A DNA stretch of 62,921 bases, filler included, from an uncultured bacterium (lineage in GTDB: Bacteria > DYJV01): NCBI GenBank assembly GCA_964543655.1. It is 5 parts of 5 records of this genome, joined end to end, with 100 filler letters (N's around TTAATTAATTAA, not from the genome) between each part and the next. Parts side by side here need not be neighbours in the genome. Positions count along the whole stretch, not along the records: positions 1 to 22,680 come from CAZIZE010000010.1; 4 more parts are not named here. One strand, given 5' to 3'. Of this stretch, positions 1 to 17,324 are shown one piece after another (the stretch's first letter is position 1; each line of letters begins with the position of its first letter). The translations under genes and the position numbers were made by a program. The notes below the pieces were generated by a model. The model had not been told where the DNA came from. It saw only the letters and a list, made by a program, of their open reading frames with translations, and made no database searches.

Positions 1-36
1 GCATGCAAAAAAACAATTGGTTTTGAGAATAAGTAA
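1..36 (+). CDS. Probable 3' end of an upstream gene (ACKKTIGFENK*), possibly an AAA ATPase
   Basis: Open frame from base 1 to TAA at 34-36; basic-IGF tail is common at AAA ATPase C-termini; only 11 codons visible. Confidence 0.35.
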   Translation, partial: ACKKTIGFENK

Positions 37-44
37 AGAGTCAA

Positions 45-65
45 TAGAGATCAGTGCGGAGTGCG
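45..65 (+). repeat. 21-bp direct repeat, copy 1 (TAGAGATCAGTGCGGAGTGCG)
   Basis: 20/21 identical to 3133-3153. Confidence 0.85.
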
Positions 66-71
66 GAGGAA

Positions 72-197
72 GGTTAAGGGTAAAGGGTTAAGGGTTAAGA
101 GTTAAGAGTTAAGAGTTAAAGGATAAAGGTTAAAGACAAAAAGACTAACGACTAACGACTAACGACTAAAGACTAAAGACTAATGACTAAATGTTAA
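72..197 (+). repeat. Degenerate heptamer tandem-repeat tract
   Basis: (G/A)GTTAAG units drifting into (A/C/T)GACTAA units, about 18 units of period 7. Confidence 0.9.
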
Positions 198-299: not shown

Positions 300-1223
300 A
301 TGAATGCTCTGGAAAATTCTTTAAAAGCTCTGCTTTTAATTGTGAATAAAAAAAGATTTACCACAAAGGATTTAGCTCAAGAGCTTGATTGCTCTGAACG
401 ACAGGCAAGAAGGTACATGAAAGTATTGAAAGATGCATTTAGAGATTCAATTATTCAAGAAAAGAAGGGGATTTACAAATGGAAAACAATTTCTGAGATT
501 GATGATAAACTTAAAGATTCATCTCTAATAAGATTAATGCGTGCATTGATAGAGCTTGGAGAAAACATACATAAAGACAAAACATACTGGAAGGATTTGA
601 AAAAGATATTTAAAACAAAGGATCTATCCAGACATGAATTAAACAAAATCATTTTTGATAGAGTTATATCCTATGAAAAAATAAGATACAACAAAGATCT
701 AATTGAAACAGCTATTAGCAAAGGGTATGTGTTAAAATTCAAATACAAAGATAAATATTACCACATAGAGCCATATCAGGTGCTTTTTTATTCAGGTATA
801 TGGTACGTGGCAGGTATTGATAGAGGAGAGGACAAAGTAAAAACATTCTCATTAGATTTAATGGAAAATGTTGAGTATTTAACAGATGAGATATTTTTAA
901 AAAAGAATTCAGTTTATAATGAGATTAAAGATTTAACATCTGTGTGGCAGGTTGGAGATAAAGAGAATTTTGAAAGTATAACAGTTGAGGTGAAAAAGGA
1001 AGTTGCAAATTATTTTCAGAGAAAAGAATATCTTTTTAAACAGCAAATTATCAGCACACAGCCCAATGGAAATATAATAATTAGCTTTTCAGTAAAAAAT
1101 GAAAATGATTTTAAAATTCAGATCTTCCACTGGTTGCCATATTTTAAGATTATAGAGCCTGAAAAGTATAAAAAACTTTATTTAAAAATATTAAACAATG
1201 CAATAGAGTTTCAAAACAACTAA
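300..1223 (+). CDS. HTH-WYL-WCX transcriptional regulator
   Basis: N-terminal wHTH (TTKDLAQELDCSERQARRYM), WYL core (IEPYQVLFYSGIWYVAG, KTFSLDLM), WCX-like tail (WLPYFKIIEP); AGGAG favours ATG 300 over GTG 294. Confidence 0.9.
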   Translation: MNALENSLKALLLIVNKKRFTTKDLAQELDCSERQARRYMKVLKDAFRDSIIQEKKGIYKWKTISEIDDKLKDSSLIRLMRALIELGENIHKDKTYWKDLKKIFKTKDLSRHELNKIIFDRVISYEKIRYNKDLIETAISKGYVLKFKYKDKYYHIEPYQVLFYSGIWYVAGIDRGEDKVKTFSLDLMENVEYLTDEIFLKKNSVYNEIKDLTSVWQVGDKENFESITVEVKKEVANYFQRKEYLFKQQIISTQPNGNIIISFSVKNENDFKIQIFHWLPYFKIIEPEKYKKLYLKILNNAIEFQNN

Positions 1224-1234
1224 AGGAGCTTGCA

Positions 1235-3124
1235 ATGAGCAAAATCTTAACAAATGAAACAAATCTTGATAGCCTAAAAAAAGCCATTTCAAATGCTAAA
1301 AAAAGGATTTACATTATTTCTCCATGGATCACTTCTGAAACATTTAAAAAAGTGTTTACAGAGGAGATTGTAAAAAGATTAATTACAAAAAAGATTAAGG
1401 TTAACATTGTAATAAGATTGAGCAGTATGGAAGATATAAAATACACAGATGAAGAATTTTTCAGATATGTGGATAGCTTTAAAAATGTTTTTTTAATAAA
1501 ATACAATAAAAATCTTCATTCCAAACTTTACATTGTTGATGATTTTTACGCATCAGTTGGATCTTACAATTTAACAGGTGGCGGATTTGGAGATGAGGAG
1601 AATAAAGGCACCAATATTGAAACAGGTTATGAATTAAAGGACAAAAAAGAGATAAAAGCAATAATTGAAATAGCTGAAAAAATATGGGAAGAATCAACAG
1701 AAATAGCAGATGATCTGCTTGGATTTACCTTAAATGAAACAACACATCACAGCTTTGTAATAGCAGGGATAAGACCGCTTGAGAATGGTAAATTTGTTGA
1801 AATAAGAGAAAATGGTAATGAAATAGTACTTGGCCAGATTGGAGAAGTGAGAAAGTACAACTTTTCATTTTTCAATGAGCCCACACTTGAAGAGAACAAT
1901 GAAAGTTTAATAAGTACATTTTCCAACTTCTCAGAGCTTGCAAACAAAATAAAAGGCATAATCAGTGCAAACAGCCTGGAGTATGGACAGCTAAATGTGG
2001 GCAATGTTAACATAATAGGAAGATTTTTTATTAAAAATAAAGAAATAATAAGAGAAGACAATAAAATAGCACCTGATGTTGCAAAAGAGGTTTATATTGC
2101 TTCATCAGAAATATTAAAGGCATTGTTTTCCAATCGCTATTGCAGTCCAGCAGTTCTATATTCCAACAGAGAAGTTGAGGCAGGAATAGATCCAGATGAA
2201 ATTATTACAAAACACATGGCAGTGTTTGGTACAACTGGATCAGGTAAATCTTATTTTGTAAAAAAGATGATTGATAAATATCTATATGAGTACTTTGTGA
2301 AATCTAAAAAAGCAAGAATAATAATTTTTGATCCTCATGGTGAGTATAAAAAAGATTTAAAAAAATTATCGTCTAAGAATGTGATAGATTATCAAGAATG
2401 TATAAAAAGGAAGTATTTAACCTACTATATTGCAGATGAAGATGACTTTTGCGAGTATTTTAAAATCAGGAAAAATACCAAAGTTGCAGGTGCAATAGCT
2501 GATATATTCAGCTACAATGTTGTAAGCAATAAAAACATAAAAGAATTACTTGAAGAAAAGGGCATAAATGGAGATTTTATAAAATACTTAGAAGATGCAA
2601 TAAAAAACAATGAAATATCATTTGATGAACCAGATGAGATATGGAAGGATTTTAAGAAACCAGATATTTACTGCATATCATTTGATGAAATAGGAGAATT
2701 AGAGGATATGTGGACGATAACAGGAAATATAGTGTCAAGTGTTTTTAATCATGCAAAATCAAGTAAAAATTTTCCAACACTGTTTGTAATAGAGGAAGCT
2801 CATAATTTTGTACCAGAGGGAGAAGGTAAGAATAATTATTCAGCAAAAGCAATAAGACAGATAGCAAGAGAGGGAAGGAAGTTTCAGGTTGGTATGATTG
2901 TAATTACCCAGAGGCCAGCGTATGTGTCAAAGGATATTCTCAGCCAATGCTCAACACAGGCAATATTCAGACTGATAAATTCAAATGATATATCACAGGT
3001 TGCAGATGTGGTAGAGGGAATAGGCAAGGAAGAGCTAATAAGACTTCCTCACTATACTCAGGGACAGTGTATTTTTACTGGAGTTGGGATAGAATCACCT
3101 GTGGTGGTGAAAATCAATATGTAG
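1235..3124 (+). CDS. PLD (single HKD) nuclease domain fused to HAS-barrel plus HerA-family ATPase
   Basis: SPWIT; HSKLYIVD (HxKxxxxD) and GSYNLT; Walker A GTTGSGKS; FDPHGEY; Walker B VIEEAHNF; REGRKF; TQRP. Confidence 0.9.
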   Translation: MSKILTNETNLDSLKKAISNAKKRIYIISPWITSETFKKVFTEEIVKRLITKKIKVNIVIRLSSMEDIKYTDEEFFRYVDSFKNVFLIKYNKNLHSKLYIVDDFYASVGSYNLTGGGFGDEENKGTNIETGYELKDKKEIKAIIEIAEKIWEESTEIADDLLGFTLNETTHHSFVIAGIRPLENGKFVEIRENGNEIVLGQIGEVRKYNFSFFNEPTLEENNESLISTFSNFSELANKIKGIISANSLEYGQLNVGNVNIIGRFFIKNKEIIREDNKIAPDVAKEVYIASSEILKALFSNRYCSPAVLYSNREVEAGIDPDEIITKHMAVFGTTGSGKSYFVKKMIDKYLYEYFVKSKKARIIIFDPHGEYKKDLKKLSSKNVIDYQECIKRKYLTYYIADEDDFCEYFKIRKNTKVAGAIADIFSYNVVSNKNIKELLEEKGINGDFIKYLEDAIKNNEISFDEPDEIWKDFKKPDIYCISFDEIGELEDMWTITGNIVSSVFNHAKSSKNFPTLFVIEEAHNFVPEGEGKNNYSAKAIRQIAREGRKFQVGMIVITQRPAYVSKDILSQCSTQAIFRLINSNDISQVADVVEGIGKEELIRLPHYTQGQCIFTGVGIESPVVVKINM

Positions 3125-3132
3125 TAAGTGGT

Positions 3133-3197
3133 TAGAAATCAGTGCGGAGTGCGTTGAAATTAGTGCGCAGTATTTAGTACATAGTGCGTAGTAAAAA
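3133..3197 (+). repeat. Direct repeat copy 2 (3133-3153) continuing into AGTGCG(N)-type heptamers
   Basis: TAGAAATCAGTGCGGAGTGCG, then AGTGCGC AGTATTT AGTACAT AGTGCGT. Confidence 0.85.
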
Positions 3198-3235
3198 TAA
3201 TTAAAAATTTTAAATTTTGAACGGTCTCAAGATAA

Positions 3236-3265
3236 TTGGCAGGTGGCTTAGTGCCACTCTGCCAA
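3236..3265 (-). terminator. Stem-loop downstream of clpB, possibly bidirectional
   Basis: TTGGCAG-GTGGC-ttagt-GCCAC-t-CTGCCAA between convergent genes. Confidence 0.6.
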
Positions 3266-3269
3266 ACAA

Positions 3270-5876
3270 TTAGTTATTCTTTTTAAAAACTATTTTTTCC
3301 TGATTTTCATCATAATCTACCAAAATATGGTCACCTGGTTTAATATTTCCAGCAATAATCTCTTTTGAGAGAGCATTTTCAATATATCGTTGTATAGCTC
3401 TTCTCAATGGCCTTGCTCCATAATGAGGATCATAGCCAACAGTTGCTATAAAATCTTCTGCTTTGTCAGTTAATTCTATTTTAATGTCATTATCCTGCAA
3501 TCTTTTGTTCAATGATTTTATTTGCAATTTCAATATTTCTTTAATATTTTCCTTTGTTAAGCCATGGAATACTACTATTTCATCCACTCTATTTAAAAAC
3601 TCTGGTTTAAAGTAATTTGTCAACATATTGATAACTGTATTTTTTACTTTTTCAAAATCTTCATCTGGTTTATAATTTAAAATAGTTTCACTGCCTATGT
3701 TAGATGTCATAATTATTACAGTATTTTTAAAGTCAACAGTTCTTCCCTGCGAATCAGTTAACCTGCCATCATCCAATATTTGTAATAAGATGTTAAAAAC
3801 ATCAGGATGCGCTTTTTCAATTTCATCAAGTAGAATTACAGAATATGGCTTTCTCCTCACTGCTTCTGTTAACTGTCCACCTTCCTCATATCCAACATAT
3901 CCTGGAGGTGCACCAATTAATTTAGCAACAGTATGTCTTTCCATAAATTCACTCATATCAAGCCTAATAATACTATTTTCATCATCAAAGAGGCTTTCAG
4001 CAAGTGTTTTTGCAAGCTCTGTTTTACCAACACCTGTTGGTCCAAGGAATATGAAACTACCTATTGGTCTTGTGGGATCTTTTAAACCAGCTCTTGCCCT
4101 CAATATTGCCTGAGCAACTGCTGTTACTGCTTCATCCTGACCAATTACTCTCTCATGTAGATGTTTTTCAAGGTTTAAAAGCTTCTGCTTTTCACCTTCA
4201 AGAAGTTTTGTTACTGGTATTCCAGTCCATCTTGATAAAACAAGAGCAATATCATCCTCATCAACTTCCTCTTTTAAAAGTTTATTTCCAGACCTGCTTC
4301 TTGCCTGCTCCTCTTTCTCTTTCAACTTCATTTCAAGCTCTCTTAATTTGCCATATTTTAATTGAGCAGCTTTGTTTAAATCATACTCTCTTTCTGCTCT
4401 CTCTATTTCAAGTTTGATTTCCTCTATTTCACGTTTAATATCACGTATCTCTTGAATTATCTCTTTTTCTTGCTTCCATTGAGCTTCAAGCTGTGTTTTT
4501 TTCTCTTTTAAATTTGCAAGCTCTTTATTTATATTTTCAAGTCGTTTTTTTGAACCTTCATCTGATTCTTTTTTAAGAGCCTGTGCTTCTATCTCAAGCT
4601 GCATAACCTTTCTTGTTATTTCATCAAGCTCACTTGGCATGGAATCTATCTCAGTTCTCAATCTTGCAGCTGCTTCATCAACAAGGTCAATTGCTTTATC
4701 TGGTAAAAATCTGTCACTAATATACCTGTGACTAAGAACTGCTGCTGCAACTAAAGCTGAGTCTTTAATTCTCACACCATGATGGTTTTCATATTTCTCT
4801 TTTAAACCTCGTAATATTGAAATAGTGTCCTCAACAGAAGGCTCACTAACAAGAACTGGTTGAAACCTTCTTTCAAGAGCAGCATCTTTTTCTATATATT
4901 TTTTATATTCATTTAAAGTTGTTGCTCCAATACAGTGTAATTCTCCCCTTGCAAGCATAGGTTTTAATAAATTTCCTGCATCCATTGCTCCCTCAGCTGC
5001 TCCTGCACCAACAACAGTGTGCAATTCATCTATAAATAGTATAATTTTACCCTCTGATTTCTGCACTTCTTTTAAAACAGCTTTTAGCCTCTCTTCAAAT
5101 TCACCTCTAAATTTTGCACCAGCAATTAATGCTCCCATGTCAAGAGCAAGGATTTCTTTATCTTTTAAGCCTTCTGGCACATCTTTATTTACAATTCTTT
5201 GTGCTAAACCTTCCACAATAGCTGTTTTACCAACTCCTGGCTCTCCAATTAAAACAGGATTGTTCTTTGTTCTCCTTGAGAGCACCTGAATAACCCTTCT
5301 AATCTCATCATCTCTACCAATAACAGGATCAAGTTTGCCTTCAGCAGCTTTTTTGGTTAAATTAATTGCAAATTTATCAAGTGCATTCATAGTTGCTTCT
5401 GGATTTTGATTTGTCACTTTTTCGTCCCCCCTTATATTTTTTATTAAACTTTCAAGGTTATCTTTATAAATTCCATATTTATTCAAAATTTGAATTATTT
5501 TGTCTGAGCTATCAAGTGCAAATAAACTTAAAAACAATATTTCTACACTTAAAAATTCATCTCCCCATTTTTTCATCTCATTTTCAGCTTCAATAAAAAC
5601 TCTATTTAACCTATTTGTAATATAAATTTGCCCACTATCAGCTCCAGGTCCAGAAACTTGTGGAATTTTCTCTATCTCTGCATTTATATCTTTTTTCAAA
5701 GATTCAATATCTACATTCATTGATGTTAATATTGTGGGAACAAGTCCCCCTTCTTGAGTGATTAATGTATATACAAGATGCTCAACATCAACGTTTTGAT
5801 TTCTTCTCTGAATTGCTAATTTTTGGGCATCTTGCAATGCTTCAATTGATTTTTGTGTTAATTTATTTAAATCCAT
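3270..5876 (-). CDS. clpB: Chaperone ClpB
   Basis: Two AAA+ modules ([16 protein letters not shown]), long coiled-coil M domain, 868 aa. Confidence 0.97.
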
Positions 5877-9926: not shown

Positions 9927-10925
9927 GTGAAACATATTTCAAAAAAATTTTTCCTTATTGTTTTATTAATACTTTTTTCTGCATGTGGAATAAAAAAATT
10001 TCCTACAATACCTTTTATTAAAGGTGCACCAGATATTAAAAAAGTAGATTTTAAAATAAAGAATGGGCAAGTGACACTATTCTGGGATAATTTAAAAGAT
10101 AATGATATTAAATTTTATGATATTTATATGTCTAAGGCACCTGTTGGAGTTAAATATTGTCTTAAATGTGATGAGAATTTTGAGCAAATTGATAAGCTTG
10201 ATTATGTTAACTTTGAAGATGAGAAAACTGTGTCAATAAATATTGAGAATCTTGAGAATAACTTTAAATATTGTTATGCGGTTGTTGCTGAAATTAAAAA
10301 TGGTAAAAAAGGTGATTTTTCAAATAAAGTTTGCTTTCAATGGTTTTATAAAGATAATATAATTTACAACATAAAAGCATTACCTCAGGATAGAAGTGTT
10401 ATGATATCATGGAATAAAAGCAAAATCCCAGAGATAATTTTAAAAGGAGTTAATATATACCAAAAGGATAAGAACAATAACTACTCATTAATATGCACAG
10501 AAAGTGGAAAGAACTTTTATATTGTCAAGAACCTTAAAAATGGTAGAAAATATACCTTTTACGTTGCCCCTTTATACAAATATCAAAATACTTTAATAGA
10601 GGGGAAATTATTTACTGTTTCAGCAGTGCCAGAGGATCTCACTCCTCCAGAATTACCACAGGTATTCACTGGATATTTTACCAATGGTGGAATATATTTA
10701 AAATGGGCAAGAAGTGTCTCAGATGATATTTATGGTTATGATATAATCAGGAAGAAAGAGGGAGAAAAATATTATAAACAGATTAATGATAGCATAATCA
10801 AAAAAGAGTATTTCTTTGATTCTCATGTTGAAAAAGGTAAAGTGTATTATTATAAAATAAGAGCTATAGATAAAAATTTTAATCCAAGTAAATTTAGTAA
10901 ACCAATTAAAGTTATTGCAGAATAG
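9927..10925 (+). CDS. Lipoprotein with fibronectin type III-like repeats
   Basis: Lipobox LFSAC; FN3-like W...Y...YYYKIRAID patterns; GTG start. Confidence 0.75.
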   Translation: MKHISKKFFLIVLLILFSACGIKKFPTIPFIKGAPDIKKVDFKIKNGQVTLFWDNLKDNDIKFYDIYMSKAPVGVKYCLKCDENFEQIDKLDYVNFEDEKTVSINIENLENNFKYCYAVVAEIKNGKKGDFSNKVCFQWFYKDNIIYNIKALPQDRSVMISWNKSKIPEIILKGVNIYQKDKNNNYSLICTESGKNFYIVKNLKNGRKYTFYVAPLYKYQNTLIEGKLFTVSAVPEDLTPPELPQVFTGYFTNGGIYLKWARSVSDDIYGYDIIRKKEGEKYYKQINDSIIKKEYFFDSHVEKGKVYYYKIRAIDKNFNPSKFSKPIKVIAE

Positions 10926-10947
10926 ATTCTTATGGAGGTTAATAGAT

Positions 10948-12195
10948 ATGGATAATTTTGTTTATAAAAATGGAGAGCTCTTTTGTGAAGAAGTTCCTGT
11001 TGGAAAAATAGCAGAAGAAGTTGGTACACCTATCTATATTTACAGTTATGAGACACTTAAAAGGCATTTTACTGTTTTTGATAGCTCATTTGAGAAAATA
11101 AAACATATTACATGTTACTCTGTTAAAGCCAATTCAAACCTATCAGTTTTAAATATTTTTAAACAACTGGGAAGTGGGTTTGACATAGTATCTGGTGGGG
11201 AGCTTTTCAGAGTTTTGAAAATAGGTGCTGATACAAAAAAGATTGTTTATTCAGGTGTTGGTAAAACTGAAGGTGAAATAAAATTTGCACTTGAAAGTAA
11301 CATCTTAATGTTTAATGTGGAATCTTTTGAAGAACTTTACACAATTAATAGAGTTGCAGAGAGCTTAAATAAAAAAGCTCCTGTTGCACTCCGTGTGAAT
11401 CCTGATGTTGACCCTCAGACACATCCAAAAATATCCACAGGGTTAAAGAAAAATAAATTTGGAGTGAATATTAATCAGGCTCTTAAATGGTACAAAGAGG
11501 CTGAACAATTAAAAAATATAGAAATTTTAGGAGTAGATTGCCATATAGGTTCTCAACTTACCAAAACCTCTCCATTTGTTGATGCTCTTAAAAAAGTTGT
11601 AAATTTAATAAATGAATTAAAAAATCATAATATTAACATTTCCTATCTTGATATTGGTGGGGGGCTTGGAGTGTGTTATAAAGATGAAGTACCACCAACC
11701 CCACAGGAATATGCAGATGCTATTTTAGATGTTATTGATGGGTTAAATATAACTCTGATTCTTGAACCTGGTAGAGTTCTTGTGGCAAATGCTGGAATTT
11801 TAGTATGTAAAGTGTTATATAATAAGAGGGGCGATTTAAAACATTTTATTATTGTAGATGGGGCAATGAACGATCTTATCAGACCTTCCCTTTATGAAGC
11901 TTATCAGGAGATTATTCCAGTAAAAGAGGGAGAAAGTAAGATAATTACAGCAGATATTGTTGGACCAATATGTGAATCTGGTGATTATCTTGGACAGGAT
12001 AGAGAGATTAAAGAATTAAATCAGGGAGAATTCATTGCAGTTAGAAGTGCAGGTGCTTATGGATTTACAATGGCATCCAATTATAATTCACGTCCAAGGG
12101 CTGCTGAGGTGATAGTTAAAGGTGATAAATATAGCATTGTTAGAGAAAGGGAGACTTATGATGAACTAATAAGAGGGGAGTCTGTTAAATTTTAA
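10948..12195 (+). CDS. lysA: Diaminopimelate decarboxylase
   Basis: YSVKANSN, HIGSQ, EPGR, GPICESGD; GGAGG before ATG 10948. Confidence 0.96.
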   Translation: MDNFVYKNGELFCEEVPVGKIAEEVGTPIYIYSYETLKRHFTVFDSSFEKIKHITCYSVKANSNLSVLNIFKQLGSGFDIVSGGELFRVLKIGADTKKIVYSGVGKTEGEIKFALESNILMFNVESFEELYTINRVAESLNKKAPVALRVNPDVDPQTHPKISTGLKKNKFGVNINQALKWYKEAEQLKNIEILGVDCHIGSQLTKTSPFVDALKKVVNLINELKNHNINISYLDIGGGLGVCYKDEVPPTPQEYADAILDVIDGLNITLILEPGRVLVANAGILVCKVLYNKRGDLKHFIIVDGAMNDLIRPSLYEAYQEIIPVKEGESKIITADIVGPICESGDYLGQDREIKELNQGEFIAVRSAGAYGFTMASNYNSRPRAAEVIVKGDKYSIVRERETYDELIRGESVKF

Positions 12196-12220
12196 CAAGT
12201 TAACGTTTAGGAGGGGTTTT

Positions 12221-13051
12221 ATGATGTTTAAGGGGATTGAATTTATCAAAATGAATGGTAGTGGCAATGATTTTATTATAATTGATAATATGAAGAAAAG
12301 GTTTTCAAGTGATGAGTTTAGAAAATATATTCCAGCAATTTGCAGACGAAAATTGTCAGTTGGTGCTGATGGAGTAATTATTTTGGAGCCATCAGCAATA
12401 GCTGATTTTAAATGGAGATTTTTTAATTCTGATGGTAGCGAAGCAGAGATGTGTGGTAATGGCTCACGTTGCGCTGCTAAATTTGCAAATTTAAAAGGGA
12501 TAGCTGGTGAGAAGTTAAAATTTGAAACACTTGCTGGAATAATAGAAGCAGAGGTTAAAGAAAACAGCGTAAAAGTTTTGATTACAAAACCTTTTAATTT
12601 AAAAATGGATTATGAAATATTTATTGATGATAATAAATATTTTATTTCAAGTATTAACACAGGTGTGCCACATGTTGTAAAATTCGTCAAAGAGCTTGAA
12701 AATTACGATGTTGCTAAAATGGGCAGGAAAATAAGGTATCATGAGATTTTTCAGCCAAATGGGACAAATGTTAATTTTGTTTCAGTTTTAAACAGGGATA
12801 CTTTGAAAATCAGAACCTATGAAAGAGGAGTTGAAGCAGAGACACTTGCCTGCGGCACAGGTTCTGTTGCAGCAGCTCTTATTGCTTATAAAAAAGGCTT
12901 TGTAAAAAAACCTGTTAAAGTTAATAATATGGGAGGGGAGACTCTTATTATCTATTTTGAAGAGAATGACAATGGTTTTGAAAAGGTTTTTTTAGAAGGT
13001 GATGCCAGATTAATATATGAAGGGAAATTGTTAGAAGATGCTGGAAAGTGA
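12221..13051 (+). CDS. dapF: Diaminopimelate epimerase
   Basis: GNDF, EMCGNGSRC, ETLACGTG. Confidence 0.96.
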   Translation: MMFKGIEFIKMNGSGNDFIIIDNMKKRFSSDEFRKYIPAICRRKLSVGADGVIILEPSAIADFKWRFFNSDGSEAEMCGNGSRCAAKFANLKGIAGEKLKFETLAGIIEAEVKENSVKVLITKPFNLKMDYEIFIDDNKYFISSINTGVPHVVKFVKELENYDVAKMGRKIRYHEIFQPNGTNVNFVSVLNRDTLKIRTYERGVEAETLACGTGSVAAALIAYKKGFVKKPVKVNNMGGETLIIYFEENDNGFEKVFLEGDARLIYEGKLLEDAGK

Positions 13052-14339
13052 AAATTTAAAATCAAGTATTGCACTGCTTACAAAGTTAAGCTTTCTCTTA
13101 ACCAAAACAGAGATTAACATTGACAATAAGTTACAGGAAGTTGTGGAAATTCTTGCTGAAGCACTATCTGTTAAAAGATGTTCTCTTGTGCTTTTTAATG
13201 AATTAGAAAAAAGATTTGAAATTGTTGCTGCTACTGGTTTTAATCTTTCCAAAGAGGAAATGAGGAAAATTGACCCAGTTAAACAGAGCAAAATTATTAA
13301 ATATGTTATTGAGAATAGAAAACCTGTTGTTGTGCGAAATGAAGATGATATGAAAAAATTTGGTATAAAACCAAAGGATAAATATAAAATCCCTTCTTTT
13401 ATTTCAGTACCTCTTATTGTTACTGGTGGAAAATTGCTTGGTGTACTGAATTTAACTGATACAATCTCTGGAGAACCTTTTACAGACCTTGAAGCGCAGA
13501 CTATACTCATTTTAAGTGACCAGATTGCAATTACTATAGAAAATACTAAATTAAGTGAGCAGATATTAAGGAACAGATTAATTAAAGAGCAGCTTAAAAT
13601 AGCCAAAAGGGTTCAGCATTCATTAATTCCATCTAACTTCCCAAATAATAGTCATATTGATTGTTATGGATTTACAATTCCAACATTTGAAGTTGGTGGT
13701 GATTATTTTGATATTTTAAAGGTTAATTCAAATTGCTATGCTTTTATTCTTGCTGATGTATCAGGTAAAGGTATCCCTGCTTCCCTTATTATGACATCAT
13801 TTAGAAGTTATTGGAGAGCACTTGTAAAAAATATTAAAAAACCGAAAAAAATTTTTGAAAGCTTAAATAATATACTTGTAAATGACCTTGAAAAAGAAGG
13901 ATTATTCCTCACCTGTTTTTACGGTATTTACAATTTTGAAAAAAACACTTTAAATTATGGCAATGCTGGGCATGAATTCCCAATTTTTTACTGCAATGAA
14001 AAAGAAAAATTTATTAAACTTGAAAAAAATGACCTTATTTTAGGAAGTTTTGCTGATGTTAAATATACTACTTACAGTAAAAAAATTAATAATGGAGATG
14101 CTATTTTTATATTTTCTGATGGTATAACAGATTTTAGCTATTATCAGAATATTGATGCTGAAAAAATAATTGAGGATATTTTCCTTGAAAATAAAGATAA
14201 AAGCATGAAAACAATAATTTCTTTAATCAAAAAAACATTACAAAATAAGTTTGCATCCAAACATCACACTGATGACCTTACATTAATTGGAATTAGATTC
14301 AAAAATGACACAAAGAAAAAGGAGGGAGAGAATGTTTAA
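13038..14339 (+). CDS. GAF plus SpoIIE/RsbU-type PP2C phosphatase
   Basis: N-terminal GAF; VGGDYFD, ADVSGKG, NAGH, FSDG, DDLT. Confidence 0.9.
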   Translation: MLESENLKSSIALLTKLSFLLTKTEINIDNKLQEVVEILAEALSVKRCSLVLFNELEKRFEIVAATGFNLSKEEMRKIDPVKQSKIIKYVIENRKPVVVRNEDDMKKFGIKPKDKYKIPSFISVPLIVTGGKLLGVLNLTDTISGEPFTDLEAQTILILSDQIAITIENTKLSEQILRNRLIKEQLKIAKRVQHSLIPSNFPNNSHIDCYGFTIPTFEVGGDYFDILKVNSNCYAFILADVSGKGIPASLIMTSFRSYWRALVKNIKKPKKIFESLNNILVNDLEKEGLFLTCFYGIYNFEKNTLNYGNAGHEFPIFYCNEKEKFIKLEKNDLILGSFADVKYTTYSKKINNGDAIFIFSDGITDFSYYQNIDAEKIIEDIFLENKDKSMKTIISLIKKTLQNKFASKHHTDDLTLIGIRFKNDTKKKEGENV

Positions 14340-15207
14340 AGGTTCATTTGTTGCAATAATAACACCATTTAAAAATGGCCAAATTGATGAAGAAACATTG
14401 AGAAAGCTTGTTAACTGGCATATAGAAAATGGTACAGATGGTATTATTCCTTGTGGCACTACTGGTGAGTCAGCAACTTTAAGTTATGAAGAGCATAAAA
14501 GAGTAATAAAGATAGTGGTTGAAGAAGTAAATAAAAGAGTTCCTGTTATTGCAGGTACAGGTTCAAATAACACAAAGGAAGCTATAGAATTAACAGAAGC
14601 TGCGAGACAGGATGGTGCAGATGCTGCACTTGTTATTACACCTTACTACAATAAGCCAACTCAGGAGGGGTTGTATCAACATTTTAAAAAAATAGCAGAG
14701 GAAGTTGCCATTCCTATTGTAATGTACAATGTTCCCGGGAGAACAGCTGTTGATATGTTACCAGATACAGTGGGAAGACTTTCAAAAATTTCCAATATCG
14801 TTGGGATAAAAGATGCCACAGGTAGTATGAAGGTATTAACAGAAATTATTGAAAACACAAGAGGTAATAATTTTTGCCTCCTTTCTGGTGATGACTTTGT
14901 TTACTTCCCATTCTTATCAGTTGGTGGTGATGGTGTTATCTCTGTTGTTGCAAATATTGCACCTAAAATAACAGCTGAGCTTTATGATGCTTTTGTTAAT
15001 GGTAATTTGGATAGAGCAAGGGAGCTTCATTTTGCTGTTAATGAGCTTTCAAGGGCTATGTTTTTGCAAACTAATCCTATACCAGTTAAAAAGGCAGCAG
15101 CATTAATGGGGCTTGTTGAAGATGAAATAAGGCTTCCTCTTGTTAGTATGGAAGGAAAAGCAGTGGAAATTTTAAAAGACGTTTTGAAGAAATATAAACT
15201 TATTTAA
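14332..15207 (+). CDS. dapA: 4-hydroxy-tetrahydrodipicolinate synthase
   Basis: GTTGES, YNVPGRT, GIKDA; ATG after GGAGG. Confidence 0.96.
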   Translation: MFKGSFVAIITPFKNGQIDEETLRKLVNWHIENGTDGIIPCGTTGESATLSYEEHKRVIKIVVEEVNKRVPVIAGTGSNNTKEAIELTEAARQDGADAALVITPYYNKPTQEGLYQHFKKIAEEVAIPIVMYNVPGRTAVDMLPDTVGRLSKISNIVGIKDATGSMKVLTEIIENTRGNNFCLLSGDDFVYFPFLSVGGDGVISVVANIAPKITAELYDAFVNGNLDRARELHFAVNELSRAMFLQTNPIPVKKAAALMGLVEDEIRLPLVSMEGKAVEILKDVLKKYKLI

Positions 15208-15224
15208 TTATTCAGGAGGGTTTC

Positions 15225-16034
15225 ATGATAAATGTAATAGTAACTGGTGCTGCTGGAAGAATGGGTAGCACTATAATAAGATTAATAAATGGTGATTCTG
15301 AATTAAAAGTTGTTGGAGCTGTTGAAAGGGAAGGTTTTGAAGAAATTGATGCAGGGATTCCAGCAAATTTAGGTGAGATTGGAGTAACAATAGTGGATAA
15401 TATAGAAAAGTTAAGCAATGTTAACGCAGATGTTATAATAGATTTTACAATGCCAGATGCTACAATTAAAACATTAAAATTTGCTATGGCAAATTCAGTT
15501 GCCATGGTAATTGGTACAACAGGGTTAACAGAGGATAATAGGGTAGAGATAAAAAAAGCTTCGGAAAAAATACCAATTGTCCAATCACCAAATATGAGTG
15601 TTGGCGTTAATACTCTTTTTAAACTTGCAGAAATTACAGCAAAAATATTGGGTAATGATTATGATATAGAAATTTTTGAGGCTCATCATAGATTTAAAAA
15701 AGATGCCCCAAGTGGAACAGCTGTTAAACTATGTGAAATAGTTGCAACAGCTGTTGGTCGTAAATACCCTGATGATGCTGTTTTTGAAAGAAATGGAATT
15801 ATTGGTGAGAGAACAGATAAAGAGATTGGAATGCAGGTTATTAGGGCAGGGGACATAGTTGGAGAGCATACTGTTATGTTTGGTGGAATAGGAGAGAGGA
15901 TTGAGCTGACACATAGAGCTCATAACAGGGAGAATTTTGCAAGAGGAGCTCTAAAAGCAGCAAAATGGATTTTTAATAAAAATAATGGTTTTTATGATAT
16001 GCAAGATGTTTTAGGTTTAAAAAACTTGTTTTAA
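15225..16034 (+). CDS. dapB: 4-hydroxy-tetrahydrodipicolinate reductase
   Basis: [22 protein letters not shown]. Confidence 0.96.
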
Positions 16035-16045
16035 AAGGAGAAGTA

Positions 16046-16792
16046 ATGAAAATTGTTCATTTTAGTTTTAAAGAATTTAATAATTTATACGGAATACTTG
16101 ATGAAGAAAAAGAACTTGTATCTGTTATTTCAAAAGATTCATTCAAAGGTGATGCAATTAGTTTAAATGAGATAAATATTTTGCCTGTTTCAATACCTAC
16201 AAAAATTATAGCTGTTGGGTTGAATTATATTGATCATGCAAATGAAATGGATAAAGAGATTCCAGATGAGCCACTTCTCTTTATGAAGCCAAATTCTGCT
16301 GTAATAGGTCACAATGAAGTTATAGTGTTACCAGAAATATCAAAACGGGTTGATTATGAAGGTGAATTGGCAATAGTTATAGGAAAAAAGTGTAAAAATG
16401 TATCTGAAGAAGAAGTTGAAGATTATGTGTTGGGTTACACATGCTTTAATGATGTTACAGCAAGGGATCTCCAGGCAAAAGATGGGCAGTATACAAGAAG
16501 CAAAAGCTTTGATACATTTGCACCTGTGGGGCCATGGATGGAAAACTCTCTTGATGTTGACAATCTTGAAATAGAAACAAGATTAAATGGTAGGGTGGTT
16601 CAGAAGTCAAATACTTCAAATATGAAATTTAAGCCTAAATTCCTTGTTTCATATATTTCAAAGATTATGACCCTTTTTCCTGGAGATATTATAGCTACTG
16701 GTACACCAGCTGGTGTTGGGCCACTTCAGCATGGTGATATTGTGGAAGTATCCATTGAAGGAATTGGTACATTAAAAAACAGCGTTAAATAA
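16046..16792 (+). CDS. Fumarylacetoacetate hydrolase family protein
   Basis: [26 protein letters not shown]. Confidence 0.92.
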
Positions 16793-16829
16793 AATAATTT
16801 TCTGCAAACTTGTATTAGGAGGTTAATAT

Positions 16830-17324
16830 ATGTTAAGAGGGAGAGCCTGGAAATTTGGAGATAATATTTCAACTGATCATATAGCACCAGGGCGATTATT
16901 TCACCTGAGGTCTAATTTACCAGAACTTGCCAAGCATGTACTTGAAGATGCAAGGGAAGATTTTGCAAAATCAATGAACAAAGGAGACTTTGTTGTTGGA
17001 GGGAATAATTTTGGACTTGGTTCAAGTAGAGAGCATGCACCTACAATTATAAAACTTGCAGGTGTTAGTGCTGTACTTGCAAAATCTTTTGCAAGAATAT
17101 TTTTTAGAAATGCAATAAATGTAGGTTTACCCGTGATTATCTGTGATACAGATAAGATAGATGAAGGTGATATTCTTGAAGTGAGCCTTGAAAATGGCAC
17201 TGTTTACAACAAAAGTAAGGATATTACCCTTAATTTTCCACCTTTGCCAGGTGTGATGACCAAAATATTAAACAGTGGAGGTCTTGTAGAATATATAAAA
17301 AAACATGGTGACTTGGTGGTTTAA
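16830..17324 (+). CDS. leuD: 3-isopropylmalate dehydratase small subunit (LeuD/HacB/DmdB type)
   Basis: STDHIAP, NFGLGSSREHA, FARIFFRNAIN. Confidence 0.85.
   Translation: MLRGRAWKFGDNISTDHIAPGRLFHLRSNLPELAKHVLEDAREDFAKSMNKGDFVVGGNNFGLGSSREHAPTIIKLAGVSAVLAKSFARIFFRNAINVGLPVIICDTDKIDEGDILEVSLENGTVYNKSKDITLNFPPLPGVMTKILNSGGLVEYIKKHGDLVV

Follow-up and report, generated by a model that had tools for sequence, protein, structure and literature searches.

The locus described here raises the question of what a HerA-type DNA motor does when a nuclease-like domain is built into its own chain. HerA rings described so far are armed by separate partners, namely, NurA, Sir2, or DUF4297, and nucleases of the phospholipase D (PLD) superfamily fused to superfamily 2 (SF2) motors exist, SauUSI being an example. 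The gene in question is part of a 62,921-nucleotide stretch of DNA, referred to below as the window, from genome assembly GCA_964543655.1 of an uncultured, low-GC bacterium for which the best-matching sequencing run is labeled as a hydrothermal vent metagenome. The gene lies directly behind that of a WYL-type transcription regulator and encodes a protein of 629 amino acids (P0001) in which a PLD domain with a single HKD motif, a HAS-barrel region, and a complete HerA ATPase follow one another in one uninterrupted open reading frame (ORF). Our answer, to which we give a probability of about one-half, is that the window copy is a horizontally acquired accessory enzyme, gated by its regulator, that degrades DNA from the ends and takes broken or invading linear DNA as its substrate. 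For the fusion in general we propose, by analogy, the niche of a processive, end-dependent DNA-degrading motor like RecBCD and AddAB, which serve both repair and defense.

A PLD domain and a HerA ATPase in one chain

A sequence-only reading that preceded this analysis had described a 629-residue ORF with a single-HKD PLD domain, a HAS-barrel-like segment, and a complete HerA. Pfam, AlphaFold models, and fold searches all agree with that description, and the motif letters quoted at the time are present in the translated ORF (Table 1). Pfam places PLDc_2 at residues 14 to 151 (E = 3e-12; 47 bits against a cutoff of 27) and the PLDc active-site motif at residues 91 to 116 (E = 5e-5), followed by the DUF87/HerA central domain at residues 308 to 457 (E = 7.9e-24) and AAA_10 at residues 507 to 615. 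When the protein was compared by sequence with the HerA chains of the PDB, the match had an E value of 5.7e-30. The Pfam match to the HAS barrel (residues 174 to 224; E = 0.0023) scored 18.4 bits, below its cutoff of 25.2, and this region was therefore assigned from its fold match. Neither a membrane or lipid-related domain nor a modified-base-reading or DNA-recognition domain was found in the fusion by Pfam.

Two marks of Nuc-like nucleases are present, the HxK(x)4D(x)6GSxN motif and a PLD-type fold spanning about 150 residues, as are two features of the HerA clade, a RecA-like core with Walker A and B motifs and a HAS barrel preceding it. In an alignment of 25 family members, K97, G109, S110, N112, N127, E129, E521, A522, and N524 are invariant, as is the Walker A motif (25/25), and H95 is found in 24 rows. 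A wider set of family sequences retains the strict HKD pattern in 87 of 101 rows and Walker A in 100 of them. Judged by motif, both catalytic modules of the window protein are intact. Behind the Walker A segment, the helical region of their nearest relatives (720 to 757 residues) contains an extra stretch of about 100 residues (family alignment columns about 500 to 700) that the window protein, P0002, and P0003 (629 to 630 residues) do not have.

An AlphaFold2 model of the full chain, built from the 25-row alignment, had a mean predicted local distance difference test (pLDDT) score of 86.7 and a predicted template modeling (pTM) score of 0.73. Beta strands are seen at residues 161 to 209 and 252 to 288, and the sole poorly defined stretch, residues 211 to 251, falls inside the barrel region, with pLDDT below 50 at residues 211 to 231. 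In Foldseek searches the model aligned to complete HerA chains over about 500 to 600 columns. The best match was 9x1m_A, the HerA of the Thermococcus kodakarensis HerA-NurA complex (E = 1.7e-31), Sulfolobus HerA (4d2i) gave a template modeling (TM) score to the target of 0.68 to 0.70, and these were followed by HerA chains in complex with SIR2 or DUF4297 (8wod, 8xav, 9c1m, and 8zir). Residues 161 to 310 are contained within these whole-chain alignments, for which TM scores to the target ranged from 0.57 to 0.80.

The PLD domain modeled alone reached a pLDDT of 93.7. Its closest fold is the nuclease domain of SauUSI (Z = 18.4; root mean square deviation, 2.4; 151 aligned), and other nuclease-type matches include NucT (Z = 16.9), Nuc (Z = 16.5), BfiI (Z = 14.9), and NgoAVII (Z = 14.8), with Zucchini at Z = 14.0. 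By the fold of its model, the domain is nuclease-like, as the sequence-only reading had it. Prediction of a homodimer of this domain gave an ipSAE score of 0.71, compared to 0.00 for the best of three controls, although the score may merely reflect likeness to the solved dimers of Nuc, NucT, Zucchini, and SauUSI; scores at that mark were obtained for 20 of 30 solved one-chain pairs and for 1 of 23 single chains. The dimer runs share at least 93% of their contacts, partner pLDDT is at least 89, and the interface is made up of residues 93 to 98, 108 to 111, and 126 to 132, i.e., the invariant HKD active-site residues. The domain is thus predicted to form a symmetric, Nuc-like homodimer through its HKD face. 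The prediction is in line with the earlier statement that single-HKD domains must dimerize, with the likeness to known dimers counting on the other side.

These models suggest how such a protein could work. The HerA part would assemble as a hexamer, and the six N-terminal PLD domains, because each is fused directly to the N terminus of the HAS barrel, should occupy the HAS face of the ring, the face that is contacted by NurA in the solved HerA-NurA complex. There they would pair through their HKD faces to give up to three composite active sites; an alternative geometry would have two rings bridged by six sites. Driven by ATP, the ring would then take up DNA at a free end and thread it through its channel to the PLD sites, which would cut it without metal and through a phospho-histidine intermediate, as is general in PLD chemistry. 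We infer in this manner the geometry of the hexamer with its three composite sites, the nuclease activity, the coupling to ATP, the regulation by the WYL protein, and the physiological role of the fusion. In the 2.8-Å structure of HerA-NurA, the HAS domain contacts the nuclease dimer, and a central tunnel leads there (PMC12977600).

Named systems, family, and distribution of the fusion

The fusion matched no named defense system in PADLOC, where it hit generic HerA models (best E = 2e-48) and, through its PLD domain, gave weak matches to MkoC, DrmC, ZacB, and DpdK. Among the NCBIfam equivalogs, the repair HerA model NF040819 matched at E = 2.1e-40 with 138.8 bits against a cutoff of 970, and the anti-phage HerA models NF042943 and NF042944 gave 119.8 bits against 800 and 122.3 bits against 850. 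By these scores, the fusion is a HerA-superfamily protein that is a member of none of the three. No published account of a PLD-HerA or HKD-HerA fusion was found in the literature searched, and an earlier mention elsewhere may exist. As far as these searches reach, the earlier statement that no characterized system has this architecture therefore stands: nuclease-armed HerA rings and PLD-motor fusions were known already, and what is new is the covalent PLD domain on HerA.

HerA-NurA, found in archaea and Deinococcus-Thermus, has the same HerA body as the fusion (HAS barrel, RecA-like ATPase, and helical bundle), and both are expected to process DNA ends in an ATP-driven manner. NurA has an RNase H-like fold and is metal dependent; the nuclease of the fusion is instead a covalent PLD/HKD domain rather than a separate NurA dimer, a ring would carry six nuclease domains compared to two in HerA-NurA, and the fusion in the window has no adjacent nurA, mre11, or rad50. 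SauUSI, the closest structural match of the PLD domain, is a single chain in which an N-terminal PLD nuclease is joined to an ATP-dependent DNA motor, and it cuts by means of a PLD dimer; BfiI and NgoAVII are also PLD restriction enzymes. The fusion differs from SauUSI in that its motor is a ring ATPase of the HerA/FtsK type and not an SF2 helicase, and in that Pfam found no recognition domain. Nuc (from pKM101) and NucT (from Helicobacter pylori) share the size, fold, and motif of the PLD domain, for which a dimer through the HKD face is predicted; these are small, stand-alone, secreted or periplasmic enzymes, whereas the PLD domain of the fusion is the N terminus of a cytoplasmic motor. RecBCD and AddAB, as ATP-driven, end-dependent, processive nucleases, share only the proposed niche and have no homology to the fusion, being superfamily 1 helicases with PD-(D/E)xK nucleases. 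The Sir2-HerA (Nezha) and DUF4297-HerA (Hailibu) systems likewise join a HerA ring to an effector, and their HerA chains are strong fold matches, but the effector of the fusion is a PLD domain and is fused, and neither a Sir2 nor a DUF4297 gene is adjacent. The nuclease of HerA-NurA is sited at the HAS face (PMC12977600), where the N-terminal PLD domain of the fusion would lie as well.

A word-indexed protein search returned 26 clusters with both Pfam domains, either unnamed or called “DUF87 domain-containing protein,” and an exhaustive search of 1.84 billion representatives returned 64 matches at E ≤ 1e-30. From both searches together, 76 proteins matched the PLD and HerA family hidden Markov models (HMMs) jointly, 70 of them at least 580 residues long, and 21 of the 170 loci examined have the two domains in a single frame. 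Since both domains occur in one frame in so many loci and in 70 full-length proteins, their pairing is far beyond chance, and the fusion is a genuine enzyme family. The family PLD HMM found no PLD gene beside a stand-alone HerA gene in the 170 loci.

In a FastTree phylogeny of 109 rows, for which support values are Shimodaira-Hasegawa-like only, the fusions form a single clade (support, 99) separate from the eight stand-alone HerA rows used as the outgroup, and they fall into three clades. The window protein lies in a clade of 33 rows (support, 100) together with P0002 (66% identity), P0003/P0116, a copy each from a Synergistota and a WOR-3 metagenome-assembled genome (MAG) (L001 and L002), and L082, and with no Aquificota rows; the Aquificota copies make up a clade of 61 rows.

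Whole-genome searches with the model of the PLD domain (E ≤ 1e-20), in which the matches fell in open frames of about 615 to 676 residues, found the fusion in 104 of 178 genomes of the Aquificota, the phylum of an Aquificaceae MAG with a family member (G001), in 1 of 268 Synergistota genomes, and in 5 of 251 sampled WOR-3 genomes. Because many of the genomes searched are incomplete MAGs, these fractions are lower bounds. They overturn the impression, gained from pattern-limited scans, that the family is very rare; this covalent PLD-HerA enzyme, undescribed as far as our searches reach, occurs in over half of the Aquificota genomes that were searched. By its place in the tree and these counts, the window copy belongs to a sporadically distributed clade that is distinct from that of the Aquificota. 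In the Synergistota and WOR-3 genomes with copies from the window's clade (G004 and G005), NurA was not matched, and no DUF87 match other than the fusion was found. Three genomes of clade III from outside the Aquificota (G003, G536, and G585) have NurA, standard HerA, and the fusion all together.

Within the Aquificota, 136 of the 178 genomes have NurA (PF09376), 150 have a DUF87 match, and 62 have PDDEXK_1, the nuclease domain of AddAB/RecB type. The pattern, as we read it, divides the genomes by handle number into two groups, G001, G002, and G006 to G093 (90 genomes) and G094 to G181 (88 genomes). The first group has the fusion in 64 genomes, NurA in 63, PDDEXK_1 in 3, and standard HerA, defined as frames of about 500 to 610 residues at E ≤ 2.2e-39, in none. 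The corresponding counts in the second group are 40 for the fusion, 73 for NurA, 59 for PDDEXK_1, and 74 for standard HerA, and here PDDEXK_1 often occurs in adjacent pairs of frames of about 880 to 1,030 residues, as expected of AddAB. The fusion is the only HerA-type ATPase in the first group, and the AddAB/RecB-type nuclease is almost absent there, which points to a housekeeping role for the fusion in end processing in these genomes, possibly with NurA. The fusion looks vertically inherited in the Aquificota. A NurA gene lies 1 to 5 kb downstream of the fusion and on the same strand in ten genomes (G115 to G120, G124, G125, G128, and G129), with the gene order fusion-Obg-NurA at L185 (3862 to 8070). 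This linkage is restricted to one subclade and is hence one evolutionary event; in complete Aquificota contigs, having NurA as a neighbor is not the rule for either the fusion or standard HerA. Five genomes (G002, G006, G014, G028, and G031) have two matches to the PLD domain of the fusion, and the second copy of G006 contains an in-frame TAG. DUF87 matches in open frames of 1,427 and 1,281 residues in G002 and G159 suggest further fusions or read-through.

No conserved partner gene was found beside the fusion across the neighborhoods examined. The commonest neighbor in 19 Aquificota loci is D-Tyr-tRNA deacylase (6 of 76 neighbor proteins), followed by CoaE, Obg, OmpA, and others. The fusion lies between RadA and a PIN-TRAM gene (L007), between a histidine kinase and LptF/G (L003), downstream of RmuC (L180), or near a Tn3 transposase fragment (L087). 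At L082, which belongs to the window's clade, two GmrSD_N genes and an AAA_21 gene come after it in a defense island. At L095 (45 to 7926) it closes a type III-A operon with Cas10 (including its HD domain), Csm2, and three RAMP genes, the last of which overlaps the start of the fusion, and at L182 (3077 to 7979) it comes last after csm genes, of which two RAMP genes were confirmed. The copies in csm operons occupy the position usual for accessory nucleases. Upstream of the Synergistota copy (L001, 4910 to 5785) is a 291-residue protein with internal Trp-rich repeats that has no Pfam match and is not a relative of the WYL regulator. For comparison, the commonest neighbor of 43 stand-alone HerA loci, which come from archaeal and Chloroflexota relatives (L008 to L080), is DUF357 (10 of 86 neighbor proteins). 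NurA was not among the 16 neighbor families there with at least two members, a comparison that covers the best 25 of 103 families and leaves room for a single-member match.

Possible roles: accessory degrader, repair enzyme, or part of a larger machine

We favor an accessory DNA degrader for the window copy because it belongs to a sporadic clade and has a regulator of its own. In one group of Aquificota the family behaves like a core enzyme; elsewhere its behavior is that of an accessory gene that moves horizontally. Several points weigh against the accessory reading. The regulator is not a specific pointer to defense, since WYL regulators also control DNA damage responses, and a WYL gene is adjacent to the fusion in 2 of 51 places (50 fusion loci and the window) when scored with a two-sequence HMM of low reach. 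No G+C shift was found at the regulator-fusion cassette relative to its surroundings, and none of the contigs of the sequencing runs skips the cassette to show an empty site. Most neighborhoods of the fusion are housekeeping ones, which fit a repair enzyme as well as a single-gene defense system, and none of the 10 relatives on viral contigs has a PLD domain. NurA, AddAB, or RecBCD may be encoded elsewhere in the genome, beyond the approximately 18 kb of the window that was scanned, and the lack of NurA in G004 and G005 is weak evidence, as both are incomplete MAGs. As to the mechanism, that neighboring PLD domains can reach one another within a ring is an assumption of ours, and the PLD dimers could bridge two rings rather than pair within one; the caveat on the dimer score given above belongs here too. 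The earlier proposal of a self-contained DNA-degrading machine, taken as a rare anti-phage device, is supported in part: the architecture, the intact motifs, and the lack of a partner nuclease beside the gene speak in favor, and the wide occurrence of the family in the Aquificota, mostly in housekeeping contexts and in company with NurA, speaks against. Homologs in housekeeping or nurA contexts, which the earlier reading had named as counting against it, account for a large part of the family, but not for the clade of the window.

The strongest competitor, which we consider less probable but take seriously, is an enzyme of recombinational repair, in which a HerA with its own PLD nuclease, alone or with a distantly encoded NurA, would resect the ends of double-strand breaks, with the WYL protein as a damage sensor in the manner of PafBC or DriD. 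The core-like presence of the fusion in the first Aquificota group, with NurA, without standard HerA, and with hardly any PDDEXK_1, argues for such a role, as do the NurA genes downstream in ten genomes, the RadA and RmuC genes beside other copies, and the fact that the best structural and NCBIfam matches (9x1m, 4d2i, and NF040819) are to repair-type HerA. The window's clade is a different and sporadic one, however, with the fusion in 1 of 268 Synergistota genomes; one relative sits in a defense island and two others end csm operons. The NurA linkage, moreover, reflects one event in one clade with Obg intervening, and the general lack of adjacency to NurA in complete contigs applies to both forms of HerA. 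The window copy may serve either defense or repair. A broader proposal, which we hold tentatively and as somewhat doubtful, is that the fusion is a stand-alone DNA shredder without a partner: assembly of the ring on a free DNA end would join the six PLD half-sites into active dimers, oligomerization would act as a safety switch, and the protein would also serve as the RecBCD/AddAB-type end-processing enzyme that Aquificaceae-like bacteria otherwise lack, as an accessory nuclease of type III CRISPR systems, and, in the vent bacterium of the window, as a WYL-gated defense cassette with a single effector gene. If true, this would be a third way of arming a HerA ring beside NurA and Sir2/DUF4297, and the sole covalent one known. 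The fusion also bears on a dispute over whether HerA-nuclease machines serve repair or defense, in which the role of canonical HerA-NurA is itself contested: the latest structural study proposes that the complex degrades foreign DNA (PMC12977600).

It is unlikely, in our estimation, that the fusion works only in concert with NurA or with a type III CRISPR-Cas complex whose genes lie elsewhere in the genome, as one component of a bigger assembly; this reading overlaps the others. NurA does co-occur with the fusion widely in the Aquificota and in the three clade III genomes from outside that phylum, the copies at L095 and L182 follow csm genes with their starts overlapping or close, and a published study counts HerA and NurA among the “type III coevolved” accessory genes (PMC6546367). 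Against this, no cas gene and no NurA turned up within the first 18 kb of the window, there is no Rfam match at the gathering score anywhere in the window, where Tandem Repeats Finder places tandem repeats at scattered sites only, NurA was not matched in G004 and G005, and the fusion carries a nuclease domain of its own with the catalytic residues intact. More improbable still is the idea that the PLD domain is not a DNA nuclease at all. It would then act on lipids, on polyphosphate, or, as a phosphodiesterase, on a small nucleotide signal, or it would be a catalytically silent module for binding or oligomerization, and the ATPase would not feed DNA to it. The fold of the domain also matches phospholipase D 7e0m and the catalytically inactive FAM83B (Z = 17.1 for each), phosphatidylserine synthase (Z = 14.6), and polyphosphate kinase (Z = 12.7), and the strict HKD pattern fails in 14 of 101 rows, including most of one seven-row clade. 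Nevertheless, the window protein and most of its relatives keep the full HKD motif along with the invariant N127 and E129, the best match by fold is to the PLD nuclease domain of SauUSI, a restriction enzyme that depends on ATP, the fusion partner is a DNA translocase, and Pfam shows no membrane or lipid-related domain.

If the fusion is the end-processing enzyme of the Aquificota in which it is the only HerA, it would help to explain how recombinational repair starts in those thermophiles. If it is also active on foreign DNA, as the copies in a defense island and in csm operons hint, it would be a compact, single-protein combination of nuclease and motor. Because it comes from thermophiles, the protein is likely to be heat stable, which would suit it to structural work and possibly to use as a tool.

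The regulator, repeats, and flanks in the window

The coordinates of the fusion, its domains and motifs, and the accompanying features are listed in Table 1.

Table 1. Positions in the window of the fusion gene, its parts, and the features around it
Feature	Position	Strand	Basis or remark
PLD-HAS-HerA fusion gene (P0001)	1235..3124	+	Uninterrupted ORF, 629 residues
Single-HKD PLD nuclease-like domain	1235..1714	+	Residues 1-160; Pfam PLDc_2 and domain model
HKD motif HxK(x)4D(x)6GSxN	1517..1570	+	Residues 95-112; pattern match
HAS-barrel region	1715..2164	+	Residues ~161-310, with low-confidence insert 211-251
HerA RecA-like ATPase and helical bundle	2165..3121	+	Residues 311-629; Pfam DUF87 and AAA_10
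Walker A GTTGSGKS	2228..2251	+	Residues 332-339; pattern match
Walker B region EEAHN	2792..2806	+	Residues 520-524; pattern match
WYL-type transcription regulator (HTH_11, WYL, and WCX)	300..1223	+	Pfam on ORF 294-1223
Ribosome-binding site AAGGAG	1223..1228	+	6 nt before the fusion ATG; read from sequence
Left copy of 38-nt direct repeat	28..65	+	Repeat search, family D1
7-nt tandem repeat arrays upstream of regulator	72..191	+	Tandem Repeats Finder
Right direct-repeat copies as 21-nt tandem, 2.1 copies	3116..3174	+	Begins within the last fusion codons

The upstream gene has the complete architecture of WYL regulators, an N-terminal helix-turn-helix (HTH) domain, the WYL domain, and a C-terminal WCX domain, with Pfam E values of 1.2e-6 (HTH_11), 2.2e-10 (WYL), and 1e-5 (WCX); against the WYL models of PADLOC it gave E = 5e-24. 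Regulators that share this architecture include BrxR/CapW in defense islands and PafBC/DriD in DNA damage responses. From the sequence, the start at ATG 300, behind AGGAG at 289 to 293, appears likelier than the mechanically called GTG 294, and the absence of the 309-residue (GTG 294) version from the protein collection searched fits the shorter start. The regulator ends about 11 to 12 nt before the fusion start, and the ribosome-binding site of the fusion overlaps the regulator stop codon. Given the 11-nt spacing, the two genes most likely form one transcript. A scan for promoters was uninformative (17 sites compared to 15.9 expected), and a weak terminator-like hairpin follows the fusion gene at 3149 to 3168. 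A WYL gene is also found after the fusion at L091; it is homologous over its full length to the regulator in the window (27% identity; E = 4e-21). At that locus (2020 to 4013) the PLD and HerA parts lie in different frames, as ORFs 2071 to 2469 and 2526 to 4013, which would be due to a frameshift, to misassembly, or to a natural split of the gene.

The regulator-fusion pair is flanked by a direct repeat of 38 nt (28 to 65 and 3116 to 3153; 79% identity), the exact 15-nt core of which occurs twice in the 62.9-kb window, where 0 occurrences are expected. An att-like boundary of the cassette was considered for this repeat but not adopted, as the right copy falls within a variable 21-nt tandem, which is one unit shorter in a contig of the second sequencing run, and as neither an integrase nor an empty site was seen. 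The heptamer arrays consist of 8.9 copies at 72 to 133 and 6.9 copies at 143 to 190, and contigs break or diverge there. Summed contig depth in the bin from 1 to 300 exceeds 1,000 in both runs, compared to about 8 to 13 over the genes, which indicates that the repeat is multicopy in the samples. The arrays may serve as operators, belong to a dispersed repeat, or mark a breakpoint of the assembly. Contigs of run X1 show the cassette joined to ClpB, and those of run X2 contain pieces of it.

Downstream of the fusion are genes assigned by Pfam to ClpB (on the opposite strand), XseA, a DegT-type aminotransferase, and ArgH, and beyond ArgH a lysine-pathway cluster and other housekeeping genes extend to about 18 kb. 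The closest matches of this ClpB share 76 to 90% identity with it, and those from named MAGs reach at most 69%. These neighbors agree with the earlier remark that no nurA, mre11, rad50, or sir2 follows the gene: Pfam and PADLOC found none of the four, and no DUF4297 gene, flanking the fusion, and none of the four, nor any cas gene, was among the ORFs scanned to about 18 kb. The stretch from 9927 to 17324 encodes a fibronectin-III-domain protein and then the lysine-pathway cluster (a LysA-type decarboxylase, DapF, DapA, and DapB), which is interrupted by a gene for a GAF-SpoIIE phosphatase.

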